Source of the DNA: an uncultured Pseudomonadota bacterium
GTDB lineage: Bacteria; Oederibacteriota; Muellerivitia; Muellerivitales; Muellerivitaceae
Direction: 5' to 3'
Length of the DNA stretch: 64,000 nucleotides
NCBI GenBank assembly: GCA_963843375.1
Contig: CAWJKT010000006.1
Span: 64,001 to 128,000, forward strand
Shown here: positions 28,121 through 36,603 of the stretch, one piece after another
Position numbering within the stretch: the first letter of the stretch is position 1
Layout: every line of letters begins with the position of its first letter
Notes under the pieces: generated by a model
Database searches by the model: none
What the model saw: the letters and a program-made list of their open reading frames with translations, nothing else
What the model was told of the DNA's origin: nothing
Position numbers and translations under genes: made by a program

Positions 28121-30272
28121 TCATTTTTGCCCGGCGGCCCTGAGGGATTCGTCCAGGGTGGGCCGGAGTTCCTTTTCCGAGTCTTTCTGCAAACCGGTTA
28201 AAAAAGCGATCACCGACGGCGTATGAAAATGGCCCAGAGCCTCCAGCGCCGCCCGTCGGACCTCCAGACTCCTGTTTTTCTTGCCTTCCATCATCTTGTA
28301 CTTGTCGGCCCATTCCATGAGGAACCCCACGCCAGAAGGATCTTCCAATTCCCCCATGACCTGGCAGGCTTTTACCCAAAATAACTCACGATCCTTTGCG
28401 CGGGCAGAGTTTTGTTTGACGGCCTCGCCTATCAATTGTCCATCCCCTTCTAGTCCAACTTTTGAAATCACCTGGAGCGCTTGCAGTGCCAATGGATTTT
28501 CCGGCTTCTTTAAAAGTTCGAGGAGGAGGCCCCTAAAATCGGATCTTTTCCACTGTTCCACGATTTCCAAAATTTTCAATTGGGCGGCCGGTCCAAAAGA
28601 GGTCCAATGCCGCTCGAAATAATCGGCCATTTCCCCCGTGAGGGGCTTCACTTTGAATATTTCCAGGAACTTTTCCAGTTGCCCCCTTTTTTCCGGCCAT
28701 TCCAGCCAAAATTCAAAAACATGGGCTCCCCCAACCTGCAAGGCGTATAAAAAATCCACCGCTTTTTTCCAATCGGCGCTTTCCAGAGATTCGTCCTCGA
28801 TCTTTCGGAACAGAAAAGGGGTCGCCCGGTTACCCAATATCGTGAAAAGTTTCAAAATTTCTTCGCCATCGCGGGTCTCCGCCTGGTACCTTTTCATGAG
28901 CGAGTCCAGTATGGGTTCGCAAAACATGGTTTCCAATGCCACTTTGGCGGCCTCGTTTTGCTTTTCAAAAGCCGGGGGCTTTTTCTCGGCAGCCGTTTTC
29001 AACAACCGTGTCATCTCCAATATTTCTTCCCAATCGGGATGGGCCAATTCCGAGGGAATCCAATCCTGAACCAGGGTTAGGGCTATGGGATAAACCGCCG
29101 ATCGATGAGTTTCCGAAAGAAATTTCCTCAAATTTCGAAGGCCATCTTTTTGAAGAATCCGGGGTATCCCGTTCCATTGCAACCGATTCAAATGCCTCAG
29201 ACAAAGGGCTTGGGTTTTTTCGTCACCCGAATTTATCTTTTCCCACAAAGCGTTCCAAAAGGTCTCGAAAATCTCCAGTTTTTCCGGTTCTTGAAGGCCG
29301 GAAATATGTTGGTTTACTTTTTCTTCAAAGTTGGGATCCCAAAAAACTTCCCAACGTTGCTCGTCAATCGCCGTGAGAACTGGGTCGGCTTCAAAAAGGG
29401 AGGCCTGGTCTGGAATATAGCTGGGGGGCGGGGCTTGCGGAAGAGAATCGCTGGCCCCGGGAACCTGGATTCCCTGGGTCTCGCCCAAAAAAACTAATTT
29501 CTTGAGTAATTCCTCCATACTGATTTGGACATCCTTAACAGGTGCCGCGACGAGATTATTTTTAAGGGCCATGAACCCGCCAAATACCTCGGTCCAGGCT
29601 TGGGCCGTTGCCGGTGGAGCCTTGGGGTGTTGGGGATTCGTTTCATCACCCTCCGTATTCAACCAATTTCCCATATTGTCCATAAGCTTCCGGGCCAATT
29701 CATGTTTATTACTATCGGGCCTAACCTTCGCGAATATCTGAAGAAAATATTGGAGCGCTTCGAGGGCCTCCTGCAGATTTTGTTCACCGCCCGGTCCCCC
29801 AACAGTTCCAGCGGGAACTACCATCTTCCCCTTCCCCCACCGCCACAAAGACCTTTTCATTCGCCCGGATATGTTCCAGTGAATGCTGGACCAACGCTTG
29901 GGAAAACGAGACTCCAGTCGGCAGACCTTTGGGTTTCAAAAGCGAAAAAAGAGTCTTCACCTCCTCCGCGGCAAGCCCTTTCAACAAGGTCAGGCTGTGA
30001 ATCTTATGAGTGAGGAAAAGGTCCTTGATCATGTTGGTGGACCCCGTCGTATGCTCGTCTAAGGGAGTCCCTTCCACCACCAGCCGACCTTCCGATTCCC
30101 CCAGCATGACGGAAGGCATTTCCTGGAAAAGTCCATCCAGGGCGGTCAAAAATCTTTGGATGGAAAGAAGCGCCATATTGTTTTCGGAAGCGTAAAGGAA
30201 AAAATTGGAGAGGGATACGCGCAACTCCCGCACCATGGAAGAAGCCACTTGAATTTGAAGCGGATTCAACAT
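28121..30272 (-). CDS. HEAT-repeat protein; one gene split by a frameshift near 29825
   Basis: ORFs 29784-30272 and 28121-29860 join at FVAVGEGE/MVVPAG; C-terminal HEAT repeats (EVRRAALEALG). Confidence 0.65.
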
Positions 30273-30418: not shown

Positions 30419-31496
30419 CTAGGGATTTTGGCGGTAATCCCAGGATGTGGTTGAAAGCGAAACCTCTGCCAAAGCTTCCTCCAAGCGGGGCCTATAGGGC
30501 GAGAGGCCGCAAGCGGGATCCGTTACGGTTGGATTTCCGGTGAGCAAGGCCGCCTGGCAGCGGCATCCGCCAAAATCCACTTCCTTGAGATCGCAGGAGG
30601 CGCAAGGTTCGGGCATCCATTGGGTGCCTCGAAAGCGGTTAAAGGATTCGGAATCCTTCCAAATCCAGGAAAGGGATTTTTCTCCCACGTTTTCCAATTT
30701 CAAAGATCCGATGGAATAGGCCGTGGGGCAGGGCAATACCTCTCCCCAGGGATTTACCGTGATATATCGCCGGCCCCAACCGTTCATGCAGGGTTTGGGC
30801 CGGTCGTAAAAATAATCGGGGATCACATAAAGGACTTCCATTTTCCCCTTCAACCGCGCTCGGGCCTTTTCAGCCACAAGCGAGGAGGCGAGGACCTGTT
30901 TCCGGGTAGGCAAAAGCTTCGACCGGTTGCGGAAGGCCCAGCCGTAATACTGGGTGTTGGCCACTTCTAGCCGGTGGGCGCCCATTTGTTCCGCCAGGTC
31001 GATGAGGGCCTCCAGTCGGTCAATATTGGCCCGATGGAGGACGATATTGACCGTGAGTGGCAACCCCAGTGAACGGACCAGTCTGGGCGGCTTCCAGTTT
31101 TTCGAATGGGCGTGGGTCCCGGCGATCTCATCGGCCAGGGATTCCTCATCGGCCTGGAAACTGAGTTGAACGCTGTCCAAACCGGCATTTCTAAGGGACT
31201 TGGCCCTGGTCTCTGATAAGCCCATGCCGCTGGTGATGAGGTTGGTATAAAGGCCCAAACCATGGGCATGAACAACCAGTTCTTCTAGGTCATGGCGCTG
31301 GAGCGGTTCTCCACCCGAAAAAAAAACGTGCAAGACCCCTAAATCCCGGGCTTGGTTCATAACCTCTTTCCACTTTTCCCCCGTTAAATCGCCGCCCTTT
31401 CCGGCTCCCTTCTCAAGCGGATTGGAACAATAGGGGCAATGCAGAGGGGCAGCGGTAGGTGAGTTCGGCTAAAAGCCCCAAGGGACGAAATTCCAG
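30419..31496 (-). CDS. pqqE: PQQ biosynthesis radical SAM/SPASM enzyme PqqE; frameshift near 31448, start unclear
   Basis: [22 protein letters not shown] restored by removing one C; SGGEP, YTNLITSG, ANTQYYGWA, KPCMNGWG, DFGGCRCQA, DPAC. Confidence 0.93.
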
Positions 31497-31536
31497 ATGG
31501 TTTTCCAGCCCTAGGGGTTCGCCGATAGAGATCTGT

Positions 31537-31837
31537 TCAACTTTTGTGGATTGGGTGGAAGGGCTCCGCCCATTCGATCAAACCCTTGGATTCAAGCCTT
31601 TGGAGTAAATTCCCGGACATCCCCTTCCAATTGGGAGACGGGGGTTTTAAAGAAAACGGACATTTTTCCCAAAAGTTGAGACAGGCTCCGGTCCCCGTCG
31701 CAAAAACCCAGGATCGCCGCGGCGCTTTCATTGAGGTTTAAAAGCCCCTCAGGAAACAAAAGCACCTGAAGACCCGTGGCAGGATCCTTCTGAAGTTTTG
31801 CCCTGGCCGCCAGTCGGGGAGCTAGATGATCTTCCAT
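31537..31837 (-). CDS. pqqD: PqqA-binding chaperone PqqD; frameshift near 31606
   Basis: VLLFPEG...LNESAAAILGFCDG; DVREF continues as LQRLESKGLIEW in the next frame. Confidence 0.88.
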
Positions 31838-31840
31838 GTT

Positions 31841-32542
31841 TCAGCCTTCCGCTCCGCCATAGGCTGCGGCCATAGCGTCCAAAAGATCCCACAAAAGCCC
31901 GCACTTAAAAGAAAGCGCCTTCACGGCTTCCTCTTGGAGCTCACGGGTATCGCAATAGGTAAAAGCCAGTTCCAAACCCTGGTCCGAATCCAACCGTGCT
32001 TGGGTCACGCGGGAACGAAAATAATCCAAACCCCAAGGCTTCACCCAGGTGTAGTACTTCTCGAAGGCTAGTATTCTTTCTTTCATCAGGTCGGGCGCAA
32101 AAAGTTCGGTCAGTGAGGAAGCCACCGCTATGGGCCAAGGTTTGGTGCGGGCAAAGTGAACATACGAGTCCACTGCCGCCTTGGCCTTGGGAAGAAGCCT
32201 CTGCCCTGATAATAGCTCATCCCGAGTAAGTCCTGTGGCTTCCCCCAGCCGGAGCCAGTTCTCAATTCCGCCTTCACCCTCTTTCAAGCCGTCATGATCG
32301 CTAATCCGGTGAAGCCAAATACGGCGGACTTCCCGAATGGGACAGTTGGAAATAATGGCAGCGTCCTTTATGGGAATATTTCGCTGGTAATAAAAGCGGT
32401 TGGCCACCCAGCCCCGTACCTGGTCGGGGTTGAGCTTCCCATCATTCATGTGACGATGGAATGGATGTTTGTCGTGATAACTGGACATCCCGATGGCTCG
32501 CAGCCGTTCGAGAAAGGAAGGCCTGTCTAAAAGGTTCTCCAT
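31841..32542 (-). CDS. pqqC: Pyrroloquinoline-quinone synthase PqqC
   Basis: YHDKHPFH, WVANRFYYQ, IPIKDAAI, RISDHDG, SSLTELFAP, LDYFRSR, FKCGLLW. Confidence 0.95.
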   Translation of the reverse strand: MENLLDRPSFLERLRAIGMSSYHDKHPFHRHMNDGKLNPDQVRGWVANRFYYQRNIPIKDAAIISNCPIREVRRIWLHRISDHDGLKEGEGGIENWLRLGEATGLTRDELLSGQRLLPKAKAAVDSYVHFARTKPWPIAVASSLTELFAPDLMKERILAFEKYYTWVKPWGLDYFRSRVTQARLDSDQGLELAFTYCDTRELQEEAVKALSFKCGLLWDLLDAMAAAYGGAEG

Positions 32543-32584
32543 CAAAACTCCTCAAATTTTACTGAAATATTTTTTCAGCGCCTT

Positions 32585-33499
32585 TTAAATCTCAAATTCC
32601 ATTCCGTCCAAGCCAACCTCCACGCCTGCCTGGATTACTTCCTGGTGCTGGGGTGTCGACTCTTTTAAAATGGGGTTTGTATTGTTGATGTGCATATAGA
32701 TTTTACGCCGGATGGGAAATTTTCGAAGGATTTCCAAGCTGCCTTGGGACCCACCTAAGGGCAAGTGGGCCATTTGTGAGGCCGTCAACTTACCTGTGCC
32801 GGTCTTAGTCATTTCCTCCTCGTCCCAAAAGGTGCCGTCCAAAAGAAGGGCATCGCAATCCTTAAGTTTTTCCTGGACCATTGGGGAAAGACCGGCGGTA
32901 TCGGGCAGGAAAACCAGGCGCCCTTGAGTGGCGGGATCCACTAACCGATAGCCCACGGCGCTTCCCTTCAAAGCGGTTGAACCCGCATATCGTGGAAGTT
33001 TGCCCGGGACTTCAAACGCCTCATAAAGAAGTCCGCTTTCCGAACCATCGCTTTTTAAGAGGGGTTTAAGGCTGGAAGGGGGCACATGCCAGGACACCCC
33101 GCCATAAGCTTTCAGGACTTCAGAGATTCTCAAACCCTCATCCAGGGCCTTTCGGACCGCGACGGGAGCGTGGAGGGGAAGAACGCCTCCCTCCCGAAGG
33201 ATGAAGATGCCAAGCACGTGGTCCAAGTCCGCATTGGTGATGAGAACCCCCTCGATGGAGGTCCCGCGAATACGTTCCGGTTGCGGCAACAAGGGGGGGA
33301 AAGACTCGATCTGATGGCGAATATCGGGCGAGGCATTCAGCAAAAACCAGGATTTCCCATCAGCACTGACCGTGGCCGAGGATTGGCTTCGCGCCATTAC
33401 ACCCGGACGGCCCTGCCGGGCTTCCAGGCAGAGGATGCAATTACAGTTCCACTGGGGGAAACCGCCGCCAGCGGCGGTTCCGAGCAATCGAATTCGCAA
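32585..33499 (-). CDS. pqqB: PQQ biosynthesis protein PqqB
   Basis: LGTAAGGGFPQWNCNC, LNASPDIRHQ, NADLDH, DGTFW, HINNTNP. Confidence 0.95.
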   Translation of the reverse strand: MRIRLLGTAAGGGFPQWNCNCILCLEARQGRPGVMARSQSSATVSADGKSWFLLNASPDIRHQIESFPPLLPQPERIRGTSIEGVLITNADLDHVLGIFILREGGVLPLHAPVAVRKALDEGLRISEVLKAYGGVSWHVPPSSLKPLLKSDGSESGLLYEAFEVPGKLPRYAGSTALKGSAVGYRLVDPATQGRLVFLPDTAGLSPMVQEKLKDCDALLLDGTFWDEEEMTKTGTGKLTASQMAHLPLGGSQGSLEILRKFPIRRKIYMHINNTNPILKESTPQHQEVIQAGVEVGLDGMEFEI

Positions 33500-33522
33500 A
33501 ACCGGTTTATGGCCGGATTTAT

Positions 33523-33615
33523 TTAAATAACGCTGTCGTCAATACCCGAATAAGCGGTGCATTCCGAATTCACGCTCACTTCTTCGATGATTGGCTTTAT
33601 CCAAAGATTTTCCAT
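33523..33615 (-). CDS. pqqA: PQQ precursor peptide PqqA (30 aa)
   Basis: Hand-translated MENLWIKPIIEEVSVNSECTAYSGIDDSVI; W.KP leader and E-xxx-Y core; RBS GGAGGT; directly upstream of pqqB. Confidence 0.92.
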   Translation of the reverse strand: MENLWIKPIIEEVSVNSECTAYSGIDDSVI

Positions 33616-33690
33616 CAGCTACCTCCAGTTTTTATTGCAAAACCCAAAAGGATTTTGCCACAGCCTACCTCCCAAAACAAGCCAAGCGGC

Positions 33691-36603
33691 CTATCCCAGG
33701 ATCAAAAGCTTCAAAACCCATCGTTTTCCGTTCGCCGTGACCACCACGTAATAAAGGCCGTTGGCAAGCGGTTTCCCTTCACGGTCCACCAACGAAACCG
33801 GTAACCTCGCGGTTCCGGCGGGTACATCAGGAATGGTTTCATCCTGCACTTCGCGGAAAGCCACCGTGAAAATCTGGATGCGCACGTTGCCGGATGAGGA
33901 AAGATTCAACAAGAGGGTAACCGGCGCCCCAATGGGAACCGGATTAGGATAAAAAATCGGCGTGGAGGTTGCGCCAGGGGTCATGGTGGGTGGAATCGTT
34001 GGACTCGAAGTATAAACAGGGGTTGAGGAAAGGGTTGAAGTGGGATTGGGGGTGAATGAGTAGGTCGGTGAAATGGTAGCAGAGTTTGTAGGTGTGAGAG
34101 TGGCCGTCAAGATGGAGGTGGGTGGGGCGGTAGCGGTTAAGGTGGAAGTTAGAGTCGAGGTAATGGAAGCAGTAGGAGTTTGGGACGCGGTCCTGGTTGC
34201 GGTAAGAGAGGCCGTAGAAGTTATCGAATTGCTTGGTGTTGGAGTAGAGGTTTTAGTGCTGGAGGAAGTCGCGCTGGAACTGGGGGACGCGGTCTGGGTG
34301 AAGGTGGGACTATTCGTGAGGGTAATGGTCGAGGTTTGAGTAAATGTTAAGGAAGAGGTAGGCGTGCCACTCGCTGTGGAGGTTGTGGAAAAGGTGGGAG
34401 TTAACGTTCCTGTTTTAGTAACCGAAGGAGTCGTGGTCAAGGAGGGGGTAGAGCTGAAGGTTGGGGTAATGGAGGCCGTATCGGTGCTGGTTGGGGTAAA
34501 GGTCATAGTCGAGGTAGGCACGGGGGTCAGGGTTCCAGTGAAAGAAGGAGTCGAGCTTTGGGTCAAAGTGGCGGTCATGGTGATGGTAGCGGTTGGAGTT
34601 TGGGTGGCCGAGGACGTGGAAGTGGATGTCAGGCTCGAAGTGGGTGTCGAGGAGGTCGTCTTAGAAGCCGTGGGAGTTGGAGTCAAGGAGGGTGAACCCG
34701 TTGCGGTCAAAGTGGCTGTTTGCGTTTGGCTATTGGTTGAAGTGGCAACGGGGGTATTGGAAGCCGTTAAAGTCGGGGTAGAGCTAGTCGTCATACTGGA
34801 AGTCGCAGTTGGCGTCTTGGAAGCCGTGGAAGTAGGGGTTGAGGTTGTTGTGGAAGTGGCGGTTGAGGTCGCCGTTAGGGTGTGCGTGGAAGTGGTGGTT
34901 GACGTTGCAGTTAGGGTGGGCGTGGAGGTGGGCGTTGAAGTAGGAGTTGCCGTCGCAACCGGACTGCCGGTGGAAGTGGGGGTGGGGGTTGTCAAAAGCC
35001 CATAAACCACCAGGCTGGAGGAAGTCGGTACGTAAACCTTGCCATTCACCACGCTGGGGGGCGCAAATTTGACACTGGCGGCCACGGCCGAATCTCGAGC
35101 GTCGTTTTGTTCGCTGTAATAAAGAGGAGTGGCCAAGTTAGTTGCGTTATAGGCAATAAGGGTGACCGGTGTTCCAGGGGCTAGAGCCCAGACGATACCG
35201 TTAGTGGTTCCATTAGAAGAAACGCTCGGGACACAACCTCCAGAATAAGTCCCGCCGAAAATGGCCGTAGTCGATGAGGAAGGAGTCGTCACATATTGAC
35301 CGTTGGCGAAGACAAAGGCTTTCAAGGCCACGCCCGACATACCCCAGTAAACAAAGTTGGTCACTCCGTTGCTGTAAATCGCCGCGGTTGTATAACCCTT
35401 TCCCCCGATGGCTGCCACGGTTTGGGGGACATTATTGGTTGTAGCGCTGAACTTACCCATACTGCCCGTGTCGGCGTCAACCACATAAAGATCGGCCGGT
35501 TTGTCCGCTCCAATGATGAGGCTGGGATGGGCCGTGGTTCCCCAAGATGAAGGCAAAAGTACTTGCCCCGCCGAACCGATGTCATTGTCCGCGCCGCTAA
35601 GGGTTGATTCGTTATAAGGGGAGAAATAATCCAATACGGTCACCGCATTGCCGGCAGTGTTCAATTTCAGGAAGCATTGTCCGTAATCCGAGACCGGTGC
35701 CGTTTGGTCGAATATACCGTTCGCGGATAGGTAGTAAAGGTTCCCCGCCGAGTCCACCGATGGGCCGTCCCCCGATTCCCAAAAGGAGGATTCGCTTCCA
35801 TTGGGGGATGCATTGAAAACGGAAACCTGCTGGGTGATGTTGGAAGCGCTATAGCCGATGACCCAGCCGTGATAATTTCCGGCAATCCCGTCGTTGTCGC
35901 AATGTCCGGTCCAACTGGTGTAAACCACCCCATTGACCAGTGCCAAGGCGCACCTTTCCTTGTAAGCCTGAGGAACAAAAGTGACCGCCGAAGCGCCGGC
36001 GCCATTCGTGCCTGGGAATGTCGCCCCGATGGTTTGGGGGCCGCTAAACTTTTCATCCCCGGTCGTGATGTCCAGCGCATGCAGGGTTTGAGTGTAAGTG
36101 GTAACTCCGGCCGAAATTTGCATGGTCATCGCCACGAAGTAGATGGTATTGGTGGTCGGGTCAATGACCGGCGTATCCGTGATGCCGATCACGGGGGAGA
36201 TTTGGGTGCAGTTACCGACATCGGCGATGGGAACGGTGGTAATCCCTGTGGCGGCATTCAGGAAACTGTCCTGCCAATAGGTCACTCCCGCCGTATCGGC
36301 ATCAAAGGCATAGGCGCTGTCATTTTCCGTAACTATGTAAATCACATTGTGGGTTCCACCGCCAATGCTGACCTTGGGCATGTAGAGCGGTTGGGCGTAG
36401 ACTTGGCCGTCCACGGCATCTGAAAAAAGTTTTCCAAAATTGGTACTGTTGACGTTGGTCGTGGTAAGAATGGTTTCGTCCTGGTTCCATCCGTCCCGGG
36501 CTTGGTCATTGTGGTAGGTCGTCAAGGAAGTTTGGGCGAAAACCGCGGAACCTGAAAGAAGGATAAGGCCAAAAGTAATTAACCGCACAGCGACCTTCCA
36601 CAT
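33691..36603 (-). CDS. Secreted PQQ-like beta-propeller protein with Thr/Ser/Pro stalk and T9SS-like C-terminal domain
   Basis: Signal peptide from ATG 36603; TYHNDQARDGWNQDETILT...FGKLF..VDGQVYAQPLY; LHALDITTGDE; KFAPPSVVNGKVYV; tail FYPNP...LANGLYYV...KLLIL. Confidence 0.75.
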   Translation of the reverse strand: MWKVAVRLITFGLILLSGSAVFAQTSLTTYHNDQARDGWNQDETILTTTNVNSTNFGKLFSDAVDGQVYAQPLYMPKVSIGGGTHNVIYIVTENDSAYAFDADTAGVTYWQDSFLNAATGITTVPIADVGNCTQISPVIGITDTPVIDPTTNTIYFVAMTMQISAGVTTYTQTLHALDITTGDEKFSGPQTIGATFPGTNGAGASAVTFVPQAYKERCALALVNGVVYTSWTGHCDNDGIAGNYHGWVIGYSASNITQQVSVFNASPNGSESSFWESGDGPSVDSAGNLYYLSANGIFDQTAPVSDYGQCFLKLNTAGNAVTVLDYFSPYNESTLSGADNDIGSAGQVLLPSSWGTTAHPSLIIGADKPADLYVVDADTGSMGKFSATTNNVPQTVAAIGGKGYTTAAIYSNGVTNFVYWGMSGVALKAFVFANGQYVTTPSSSTTAIFGGTYSGGCVPSVSSNGTTNGIVWALAPGTPVTLIAYNATNLATPLYYSEQNDARDSAVAASVKFAPPSVVNGKVYVPTSSSLVVYGLLTTPTPTSTGSPVATATPTSTPTSTPTLTATSTTTSTHTLTATSTATSTTTSTPTSTASKTPTATSSMTTSSTPTLTASNTPVATSTNSQTQTATLTATGSPSLTPTPTASKTTSSTPTSSLTSTSTSSATQTPTATITMTATLTQSSTPSFTGTLTPVPTSTMTFTPTSTDTASITPTFSSTPSLTTTPSVTKTGTLTPTFSTTSTASGTPTSSLTFTQTSTITLTNSPTFTQTASPSSSATSSSTKTSTPTPSNSITSTASLTATRTASQTPTASITSTLTSTLTATAPPTSILTATLTPTNSATISPTYSFTPNPTSTLSSTPVYTSSPTIPPTMTPGATSTPIFYPNPVPIGAPVTLLLNLSSSGNVRIQIFTVAFREVQDETIPDVPAGTARLPVSLVDREGKPLANGLYYVVVTANGKRWVLKLLILG
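33961..34990 (-). repeat. Low-complexity Thr/Ser/Pro coding repeat (TxTP-type, about 340 aa)
   Basis: Degenerate TPT/TAT/TST units with varied codons. Confidence 0.9.

Follow-up and report, generated by a model that had tools for sequence, protein, structure and literature searches.

An eight-bladed propeller protein of an undescribed family as the likely PQQ client of an adjoining pqq operon in candidate division FCPU426

Main finding

The window analysed here is a stretch of 64,000 nucleotides (GenBank assembly GCA_963843375.1, contig CAWJKT010000006.1, positions 64,001 to 128,000 of the forward strand) from an uncultured member of candidate division FCPU426. It contains a gene for a long beta-propeller protein that heads a pqq operon, whose products make pyrroloquinoline quinone (PQQ). 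The propeller is likely the PQQ client of the adjoining operon, as the original prediction from this DNA had proposed; support comes from an adjacency that is conserved and recurs, from joint occurrence in four lineages, from active-site residues that have been kept and from relatives with cytochrome fusions. A fuller reading, to which we give a probability of roughly 0.55, is that the protein would be a PQQ/Ca2+ dehydrogenase of an undescribed family, exported by a route resembling that of type IX secretion systems (T9SS) and oxidising sugars, or alcohols derived from them, beyond the outer membrane. Below, G000 is the source assembly, other G numbers are genome labels and L numbers are locus labels.

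The features of the locus are as follows (window coordinates).

36535..36603, minus strand: predicted Sec-type signal peptide, residues 1-23 (by eye; the mature domain of homologues begins at the same AQ)
34993..36534, minus strand: predicted eight-bladed beta-propeller, residues 24-537, diverged member of the quinoprotein-dehydrogenase superfamily (AF2, Foldseek, VIA, hhalign, HMMER to 8gy2, conservation, cysteine covariation)
33970..34992, minus strand: T/S/P-rich linker or stalk, 341 aa, 71% T+S+P (similar linkers precede many of 74 tail-bearing reading frames)
33691..33969, minus strand: C-terminal Ig-like tail YPNP...KLLxx, T9SS type A or FlgD-like, with stop (TIGR04183 E 0.037, PF13860 E 0.005, both below cut-off)
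33616..33690, minus strand: 75-bp gap with GGAGG ribosome site and possible weak internal promoter (sequence; no terminator found)
33523..33615, minus strand: pqqA, precursor peptide of 30 aa with ExxxY motif (PqqA models match below cut-off; 73-90% identity to relatives in the host's taxonomic family)
32585..33499, minus strand: pqqB (TIGR02108 350 bits, cut-off 245)
31841..32545, minus strand: pqqC (TIGR02111 298 bits, cut-off 240)
30419..31837, minus strand: pqqD-pqqE fusion gene (TIGR02109 427 bits; fused 471-aa frame in G054 and others; short-read contigs)

The propeller gene is a minus-strand open reading frame (ORF) of 970 aa, from an ATG at 36603 to a stop at 33691. Its N-terminus is hydrophobic and ends AVFAQ, a candidate signal peptide judged by eye; the stalk occupies residues 538-878, and the tail begins IFYPNP and finishes KLLILG. 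With the stop at 33691 and the pqqA start at 33615, the gap between the two genes is exactly 75 bp. This reading of the ORF confirms the anatomy described beforehand, from signal peptide through beta-rich domain, stalk and tail to the short spacing. The lack of a U-tailed terminator is borne out too: nothing terminator-like lies in 33616-33690, and the region overall has 13 such sites against a chance expectation of 11.7. The gap does hold a weak promoter-like element (TTGTTT-17-CAAAAT), with a comparable element, by eye, in the gaps of G054 and G072. pqqA may therefore have a separate promoter there, and a single transcript with the propeller gene remains a candidate. The window had also been said to lack a canonical quinoprotein, and genome-wide profile searches with PF01011, PF07995 and PF13360 indeed gave zero matches on its contig.

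Fold and candidate active site

The AlphaFold2 (AF2) model of the propeller domain is confident (pLDDT 95.4, pTM 0.95). Foldseek ranks 1-8 are quinoprotein alcohol or methanol dehydrogenases, and rank 9 is tetrathionate hydrolase. VIA aligned 392-402 residues to quinoproteins at 2.3-2.5 A, and 297-366 residues to BamB, YxaL, Rv3035, tetrathionate hydrolase and designed propellers. Quinoproteins thus align longest but cofactor-free propellers lead by Z-score, so that the fold alone is undecisive. In the model the propeller is eight-bladed with quinoprotein-type loops. Alignment of profiles by hhalign to 12 proteins of the alcohol dehydrogenase (ADH) type gave P 98.4 and E 7.7e-15.

Candidate PQQ/Ca2+ residues are Q71, R217, D236, W275, N295, D339, D341 and K368, with a candidate disulfide C132-C235. 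In the quinoprotein site, PQQ is sandwiched between Trp243 and a vicinal disulfide (the CC pair), and its carboxylates are bound by Glu55, Arg109, Thr159 and Ser174. Alignment by hhalign places Q71 at the Glu, N295 at the Asn and K368 at the Arg/Lys of that site, pairs C132 with the first cysteine of the CC pair and, like HMMER to 8gy2, aligns D341 to the catalytic Asp; these equivalences are at the level of alignment. For MxaF, the excerpted source numbers the site Glu177, Asn261, Asp303, Arg331, Thr159 and Ser174 (PMC8028316). Residue conservation and the tree below use 106 domains, one per locus (one of 107 loci was excluded, its domain being too short). No polar residues of the family are better conserved than those of the candidate site (counts R 106, W 106, D 105, K 105, D 104, D 102 and N 101); equivalents of the metal ligands and base are conserved in 101-105 of the 106, the catalytic Asp is retained in 102, and the position of Glu55 is Gln/Glu 79/21. 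The cysteines covary, with both C132 and C235 present in 95 of 132 sequences, neither in 35 and a single one in 2. Two residues past the catalytic Asp, where a lanthanide-type second Asp would stand, the family has Gly in 100/106 and Asp in 1/106, and because of this Gly, Ca2+ is preferred over a lanthanide as the predicted metal; a further conserved Asp precedes the catalytic one by two residues. Structure prediction, which the original idea had called for together with docking, returned a confident model with eight blades and not the fold of the fungal AA12 enzymes.

Linkage to pqq genes

Among 99 FCPU426 genomes, 20 carry the propeller family and 10 carry pqqC, and all 10 are within those 20; pqqC is absent from all 79 genomes without the family. 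The order propeller-stalk-tail-pqqA-B-C-DE is found in seven of the 10 pqqC-bearing genomes. In G072 the tail is followed by pqqA at a contig end, and the G065 contig is cut inside pqqC. G035, from another FCPU426 family, has at a contig end the start of a different paralogue, oriented divergently to pqqA, its remainder being inferred to be on another contig.

Copies adjacent to pqq genes also occur beyond the taxonomic family of the host: in one other family of FCPU426, in one Binatia-like genome and in two genomes of Verrucomicrobiota. In the Binatia-like G099 a family gene lies 146 bp ahead of pqqA-E; in G627 (Verrucomicrobiota) the gene directly after pqqE encodes a 1814-aa propeller-PA14-Ig-diheme cytochrome protein; and in G101 the family copy is divergent, with two ORFs between it and pqqA. 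Copies in G556, G567 and G603 are 14-28 kb from pqq genes. The pqq-adjacent copies are spread over several separate clades of a FastTree phylogeny, which needs seven label changes, at least six of them forced.

Genomes with the family carry pqqC more often than those without it, in the Binatia-like class of G099 (8/21 vs 9/130), in Acidobacteriota (5/9 vs 7/192) and in a Verrucomicrobiota order (8/39 vs 1/202), although kinship and common habitat inflate these counts; only 6-7 candidates per genome were scored for Acidobacteriota and Verrucomicrobiota. The original prediction had called for comparing co-localisation with chance, and outside FCPU426 a family copy lies within 5 kb of pqqC in 3 of the 21 genomes having both, against 0.15-0.36 expected, or in 2 against 0.15-0.35 (P 0.01-0.05) when G099, found by a targeted look, is left out. 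As a positive control, among 20 further pqq loci nine had a canonical dehydrogenase no more than 10 kb away and none had the propeller family. It had also been anticipated that homologues might prove independent of pqq genes; recurrent adjacency speaks for a link, and most members are neither near pqq genes nor in PQQ-making genomes.

Some side observations concern these loci. At Binatia-like pqq loci a canonical dehydrogenase is next door in 6/9, all in genomes without the family, and the eight Binatia-like genomes with the family have no canonical dehydrogenase beside pqq, so that the two are possibly alternative clients (L203-L215). FCPU426 PqqC is 68-70% identical to that of some Verrucomicrobiota, against 44-57% for Acidobacteriota and Binatia-like genomes, which hints at operon exchange (L187, L189, L191). 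The G099 copy (L155:7850-11503) has three repeats of an N-terminal domain without family assignment.

The pqq operon and assembly quality

PqqB, PqqC and PqqE score above their NCBIfam cut-offs. The order of the pqqABCDE run was as originally described; its pqqD and pqqE are not two genes, however, and form a single fused ORF, about 471 aa in relatives, throughout the taxonomic family of the host (window 30419-31837; L049-L057). In the window this frame is broken by single extra bases near 31449, 31563 and 31612, one of them within the CX3CX2C motif, and also has a compensating pair at 31085/31097. The frame breaks are assembly errors, because all three added bases are missing from short-read contigs (for 31612 and 31562/3 in 4/4 runs, for 31448/9 in all 3 covering runs), and pseudogenisation of pqqD/E is ruled out on the same ground. 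As the extra bases and the compensating pair are missing from these contigs, the PQQ synthesis pathway is likely intact, judging by its genes. One run's contig spans the 3′ end of the propeller gene, pqqA and pqqB with no differences.

The host assembly is 80% complete and some of its contig ends are of foreign composition; the stretch of the window is native. The chimeric ends of G000 include C4 1-120 kb and 460-564 kb, C10 1-50 kb, C13 1-20 kb, C1 1-10 kb and others, and the foreign part of C4 holds an 18-25-heme cytochrome cluster at 95-100 kb. Elsewhere in the window, ORFs of 162 aa and 579 aa (window 28121-30272) correspond to one 716-aa HEAT-repeat gene in G054, and an extra base at 29826 in this gene is missing from short-read contigs. 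In three relatives unrelated genes sit between pqqB and pqqC, coding for a small membrane protein, an unknown protein that is secreted and a serine-hydrolase-like protein (L049:7835-8272, L052:11398-12204, L054:7370-8815).

Export

The YPNP-type tail is found on 74 ORFs of the host genome, terminal in nearly all. Seven of 20 hand-picked tail ORFs match glycoside hydrolase (GH) families and others have malectin, lyase or protease domains; the tailed hydrolases are GH5, GH8, GH9, GH28 and GH30. As the tail ends 74 ORFs, glycoside hydrolases among them, and similar linkers precede many, stalk and tail are a generic secretion design of the lineage, not special to the propeller gene. PorV/PorQ-family matches above cut-off number 24-32 per genome in 5/5 genomes (e.g. 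G000:C15:110969-114545, L164, L167), 24 of these PorV-like genes being in the host. An SprA-like protein of about 2000 aa is found in 4/4 FCPU426 genomes (E 1e-31 to 1e-35) and not in a Trinickia control; SprA_N and PorP/SprF (PF14349, PF11751) were not found, though controls were likewise silent. T9SS-like export of the propeller protein is plausible on these gene contents, as had been suggested; the exported protein might be displayed on the cell, as proposed, or released. The T9SS-like system of FCPU426 has a large PorV expansion and deserves separate study. Native multi-heme ORFs are present in the host genome. A 16S cluster of FCPU426 has been linked to the cellulose-degrading Goldbacteria in an excerpted source (PMC7031533).

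Other PQQ clients

Two canonical eight-bladed quinoproteins are encoded in the host assembly, on C13 and C4. As an explanation of the operon they were rejected, lying in foreign contig ends (tetranucleotide correlation 0.3-0.6 vs about 0.95), and no full-length PF01011 protein was found in 30 genomes of the host's taxonomic family. A conventional quinoprotein elsewhere had been named as a finding that would explain the operon without the propeller. The canonical pair gives no such explanation, being foreign, while six-bladed clients in many relatives do leave room for one. Because these six-bladed PQQ clients occur elsewhere in many relatives, the propeller need not be the sole PQQ client in FCPU426 relatives.

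The six-bladed proteins are also present in 10/22 pqq-negative genomes of the host's taxonomic family. AA12-like ones with the lanthanide-type NGRD motif are frequent there with or without pqq genes (L068-L077), their gene being unlinked to pqq; an excerpt of a preprint describes this motif for six-bladed PQQ enzymes (bioRxiv 10.64898/2026.07.10.737718). Several of these genes adjoin a Rieske-protein gene (L068-L077). Four pqqC-bearing genomes have no detectable known client: G067 (96% complete), G035 (89%) and G065 (84%), which have no match to PF01011 or PF07995 and in which the AA12-like six-bladed protein was not found, and G099, where the sole PF01011 match covers 83 positions in a BamB-like repeat protein.

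The protein family

Relatives of the propeller domain number at least 8,000 at 90% clustering and 13,072 clusters at 50% identity, and databases annotate them, automatically, as hypothetical or PQQ-like. Members run into the thousands in Acidobacteriota, Verrucomicrobiota, Burkholderiaceae and FCPU426, and stand-alone ones exist in cultured Trinickia, Caballeronia, Granulicella and Tunturiibacter. Pfam, NCBIfam and PDB give the domain no sequence assignment: the protein is without a match to PF01011, TIGR03074 or TIGR03075 at E 0.1 and does not reach their curated cut-offs, and a sequence search of the PDB with the single domain came back empty at E 0.001, a profile reaching E 0.19 at best. 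The propeller is likely a diverged member of the quinoprotein superfamily that belongs to no named family. In the literature searched, with limited coverage of subscription papers and supplements, we found no paper describing the family. An excerpted source that deals with E. coli and P. putida alone says that the complete set of PQQ proteins is not known (PMC13088180).

Partner domains among 43 long relatives are Ig and FN3 repeats and carbohydrate-binding modules, including CBM6, CBM35, CBM96, PA14, malectin and lectins. In Verrucomicrobiota members the propeller is fused to PA14, Ig and an SO2930-type diheme cytochrome c (L184:12629-18070, L185, L188, P0124); P0124 has two copies of the propeller.

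Comparison with known systems

The eight-bladed quinoprotein alcohol and methanol dehydrogenases (MxaF/XoxF, ExaA/PedH, type II quinohemoprotein ADH, sorbose dehydrogenase; PF01011, TIGR03075) share the fold across some 400 residues (2.4 A), with the N-terminal two-thirds collinear and with equivalents, at the alignment level, of the metal and base residues and candidate ones of the PQQ residues. The propeller protein differs from them in its identity of 10-18% and lack of a PF01011 or TIGR03075 match, and its family in a non-vicinal Cys pair in place of the CC pair, a replaced NRG arginine with an invariant Arg elsewhere, Asp for a Glu metal ligand, and a modular build with carbohydrate-binding modules, stalks and export tails.

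The likeness to fungal AA12 enzymes that had been proposed holds as an analogy. The fungal pyranose dehydrogenase CcPDH and the bacterial six-bladed PQQ enzymes, as a preprint excerpt presents them (bioRxiv 10.64898/2026.07.10.737718), likewise join a secreted PQQ domain to carbohydrate-binding and cytochrome modules, a design that the Verrucomicrobiota fusions mirror. As the propeller fold is eight-bladed, of the ADH/methanol dehydrogenase type, and not six-bladed, the likeness does not extend to the fold: AA12 is unrelated in sequence, the propeller protein gave no match to PF07995 or PF22807 and so falls outside the six-bladed class, it is without a heme domain, and an LPMO10 partner was not found.

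Tetrathionate hydrolase, BamB, YxaL and Rv3035, which are cofactor-free, share the blade number and have similar or higher Z-scores, but align over shorter stretches and are without the loops common to the propeller and quinoproteins. T9SS cargo with a type A C-terminal domain resembles the host's secreted enzymes in the YPNP...K-hydrophobic Ig-like tail, and in the PorV-family and SprA-like genes; it differs in that the host tail scores below cut-off, PorP/SprF was not found (controls silent) and the PorV family is enlarged to 24-32 matches.

Proposed mechanism and alternatives

In the mechanism that we propose, Sec would export the propeller apoprotein, and PQQ from PqqA-E would load with Ca2+ at the propeller centre, where D236, N295 and D341 would be metal ligands or base, K368, W275, Q71 and R217 would contact PQQ and C132-C235 would form a disulfide lid. 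PorV/SprA-like proteins would recognise the tail, and the stalk would hold the catalytic head at a distance, as in the co-exported glycoside hydrolases, whose freed sugars would be the substrates. In Verrucomicrobiota the fused diheme cytochrome would receive the electrons; in FCPU426 the acceptor would need to be soluble or at the surface. Relatives that lack pqq genes would obtain their PQQ by scavenging.

Several observations weigh against this reading. The electron acceptor is its weak step, none being apparent in the host: heme motifs are found in 0/74 tail-bearing ORFs, LPMO10 (a lytic polysaccharide monooxygenase) in none of 31 genomes of the host's taxonomic family, and a heme motif in only 1/266 database homologues. 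In the active site, the equivalence of D236 depends on an S-x-x-D motif and is one column off in hhalign, W275 is equated by motif reading and off register there, the conserved Arg of the NRG motif (Arg109) is replaced, an invariant Arg sitting instead at the Thr159 position, and in the G099 copy, which adjoins pqq genes, Asn stands in place of the catalytic Asp. By VIA Z-score the cofactor-free propellers reach 30-32, with YxaL, Rv3035 and BamB leading, against 29 for quinoproteins. Linkage is patchy: pqq genes lie within 10 kb at 1/79 distant loci (G099), adjacency is found in 0/5 Acidobacteriota and 0/7 other Binatia-like genomes having both genes, and carriers lack pqqC in 10/20 FCPU426, 13/21 Binatia-like, 4/9 Acidobacteriota and 31/39 Verrucomicrobiota genomes. 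Orthologues at 77-80% identity persist without pqqC in G047-G051 (86-99% complete), and G048 keeps the propeller gene near hrpB without a pqq operon. The host has a native six-bladed HHIP/GSDH-type protein on C11 (the one PF07995 match in the genome), and 6/8 pqq-bearing relatives of its taxonomic family have PF07995 proteins. The SprA-like matches, finally, are all below cut-off.

Much of this could be accommodated by a quinoprotein descendant that works without PQQ in the manner of tetrathionate hydrolase, BamB or YxaL, as an Asp-dependent hydrolase or lyase or as a lectin, the pqq genes serving the six-bladed clients and the adjacency being an inherited accident. The rank of tetrathionate hydrolase, the Z-scores, the carriers without pqqC and the HHIP/GSDH-type and NGRD proteins all suit it. 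We think it unlikely, since according to an excerpted source tetrathionate hydrolase is without PQQ, disulfide and calcium residues (PMC10859504), of which the propeller family has equivalents; adjacency recurs with different paralogues and orientations; redox chemistry is implied by the fusions to diheme cytochromes; in four pqq genomes neither a six-bladed nor an eight-bladed client could be detected; and six-bladed proteins are found in pqq-negative genomes too.

Two further alternatives keep the PQQ and change the setting. The dehydrogenase might be retained in the periplasm or at the inner face of the outer membrane, the tail being no export signal in this phylum. The sub-threshold tail and the unfound SprA_N and PorP/SprF agree with this, as does a review that, in the excerpt concerned, restricts T9SS genes to the FCB (Fibrobacterota-Chlorobiota-Bacteroidota) phyla (PMC11285876), and a periplasmic site would resolve the acceptor problem through the native multi-heme ORFs; a tail common to polymer-active enzymes of families GH5, GH8, GH9, GH28 and GH30, in a genome with SprA-like and many PorV-like genes, makes it distinctly improbable. 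A protein that binds PQQ outside the cell without being a respiratory dehydrogenase, and that either stores PQQ or serves as a redox catalyst handing electrons to O2, Fe(III) or humic quinones (with peroxide or Fenton chemistry acting on plant polymers), would suit a lineage without fused or tail-bearing cytochromes and without an LPMO10 partner, and the Asn of the G099 copy; we hold it to be about equally improbable, as the catalytic Asp is kept in 102/106 domains and the Verrucomicrobiota fusions match usual dehydrogenase wiring. The PQQ/Ca2+ dehydrogenase acting outside the outer membrane is the reading that we retain.

Significance

Most of the bacterial quinoproteins known so far are respiratory enzymes of the periplasm. 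With rather less assurance than for the host protein, we suggest that soil and peat bacteria may have PQQ enzymes of a third class with very many members, secreted and carbohydrate-targeted eight-bladed dehydrogenases that would be the bacterial counterpart of AA12, would account for client-less pqq operons and, in FCPU426, would be exported by a T9SS-like system with expanded PorV. If true, the orphan pqq operons would be explained, and if the propeller family are PQQ enzymes, a large oxidative activity would be added to soil carbon turnover.

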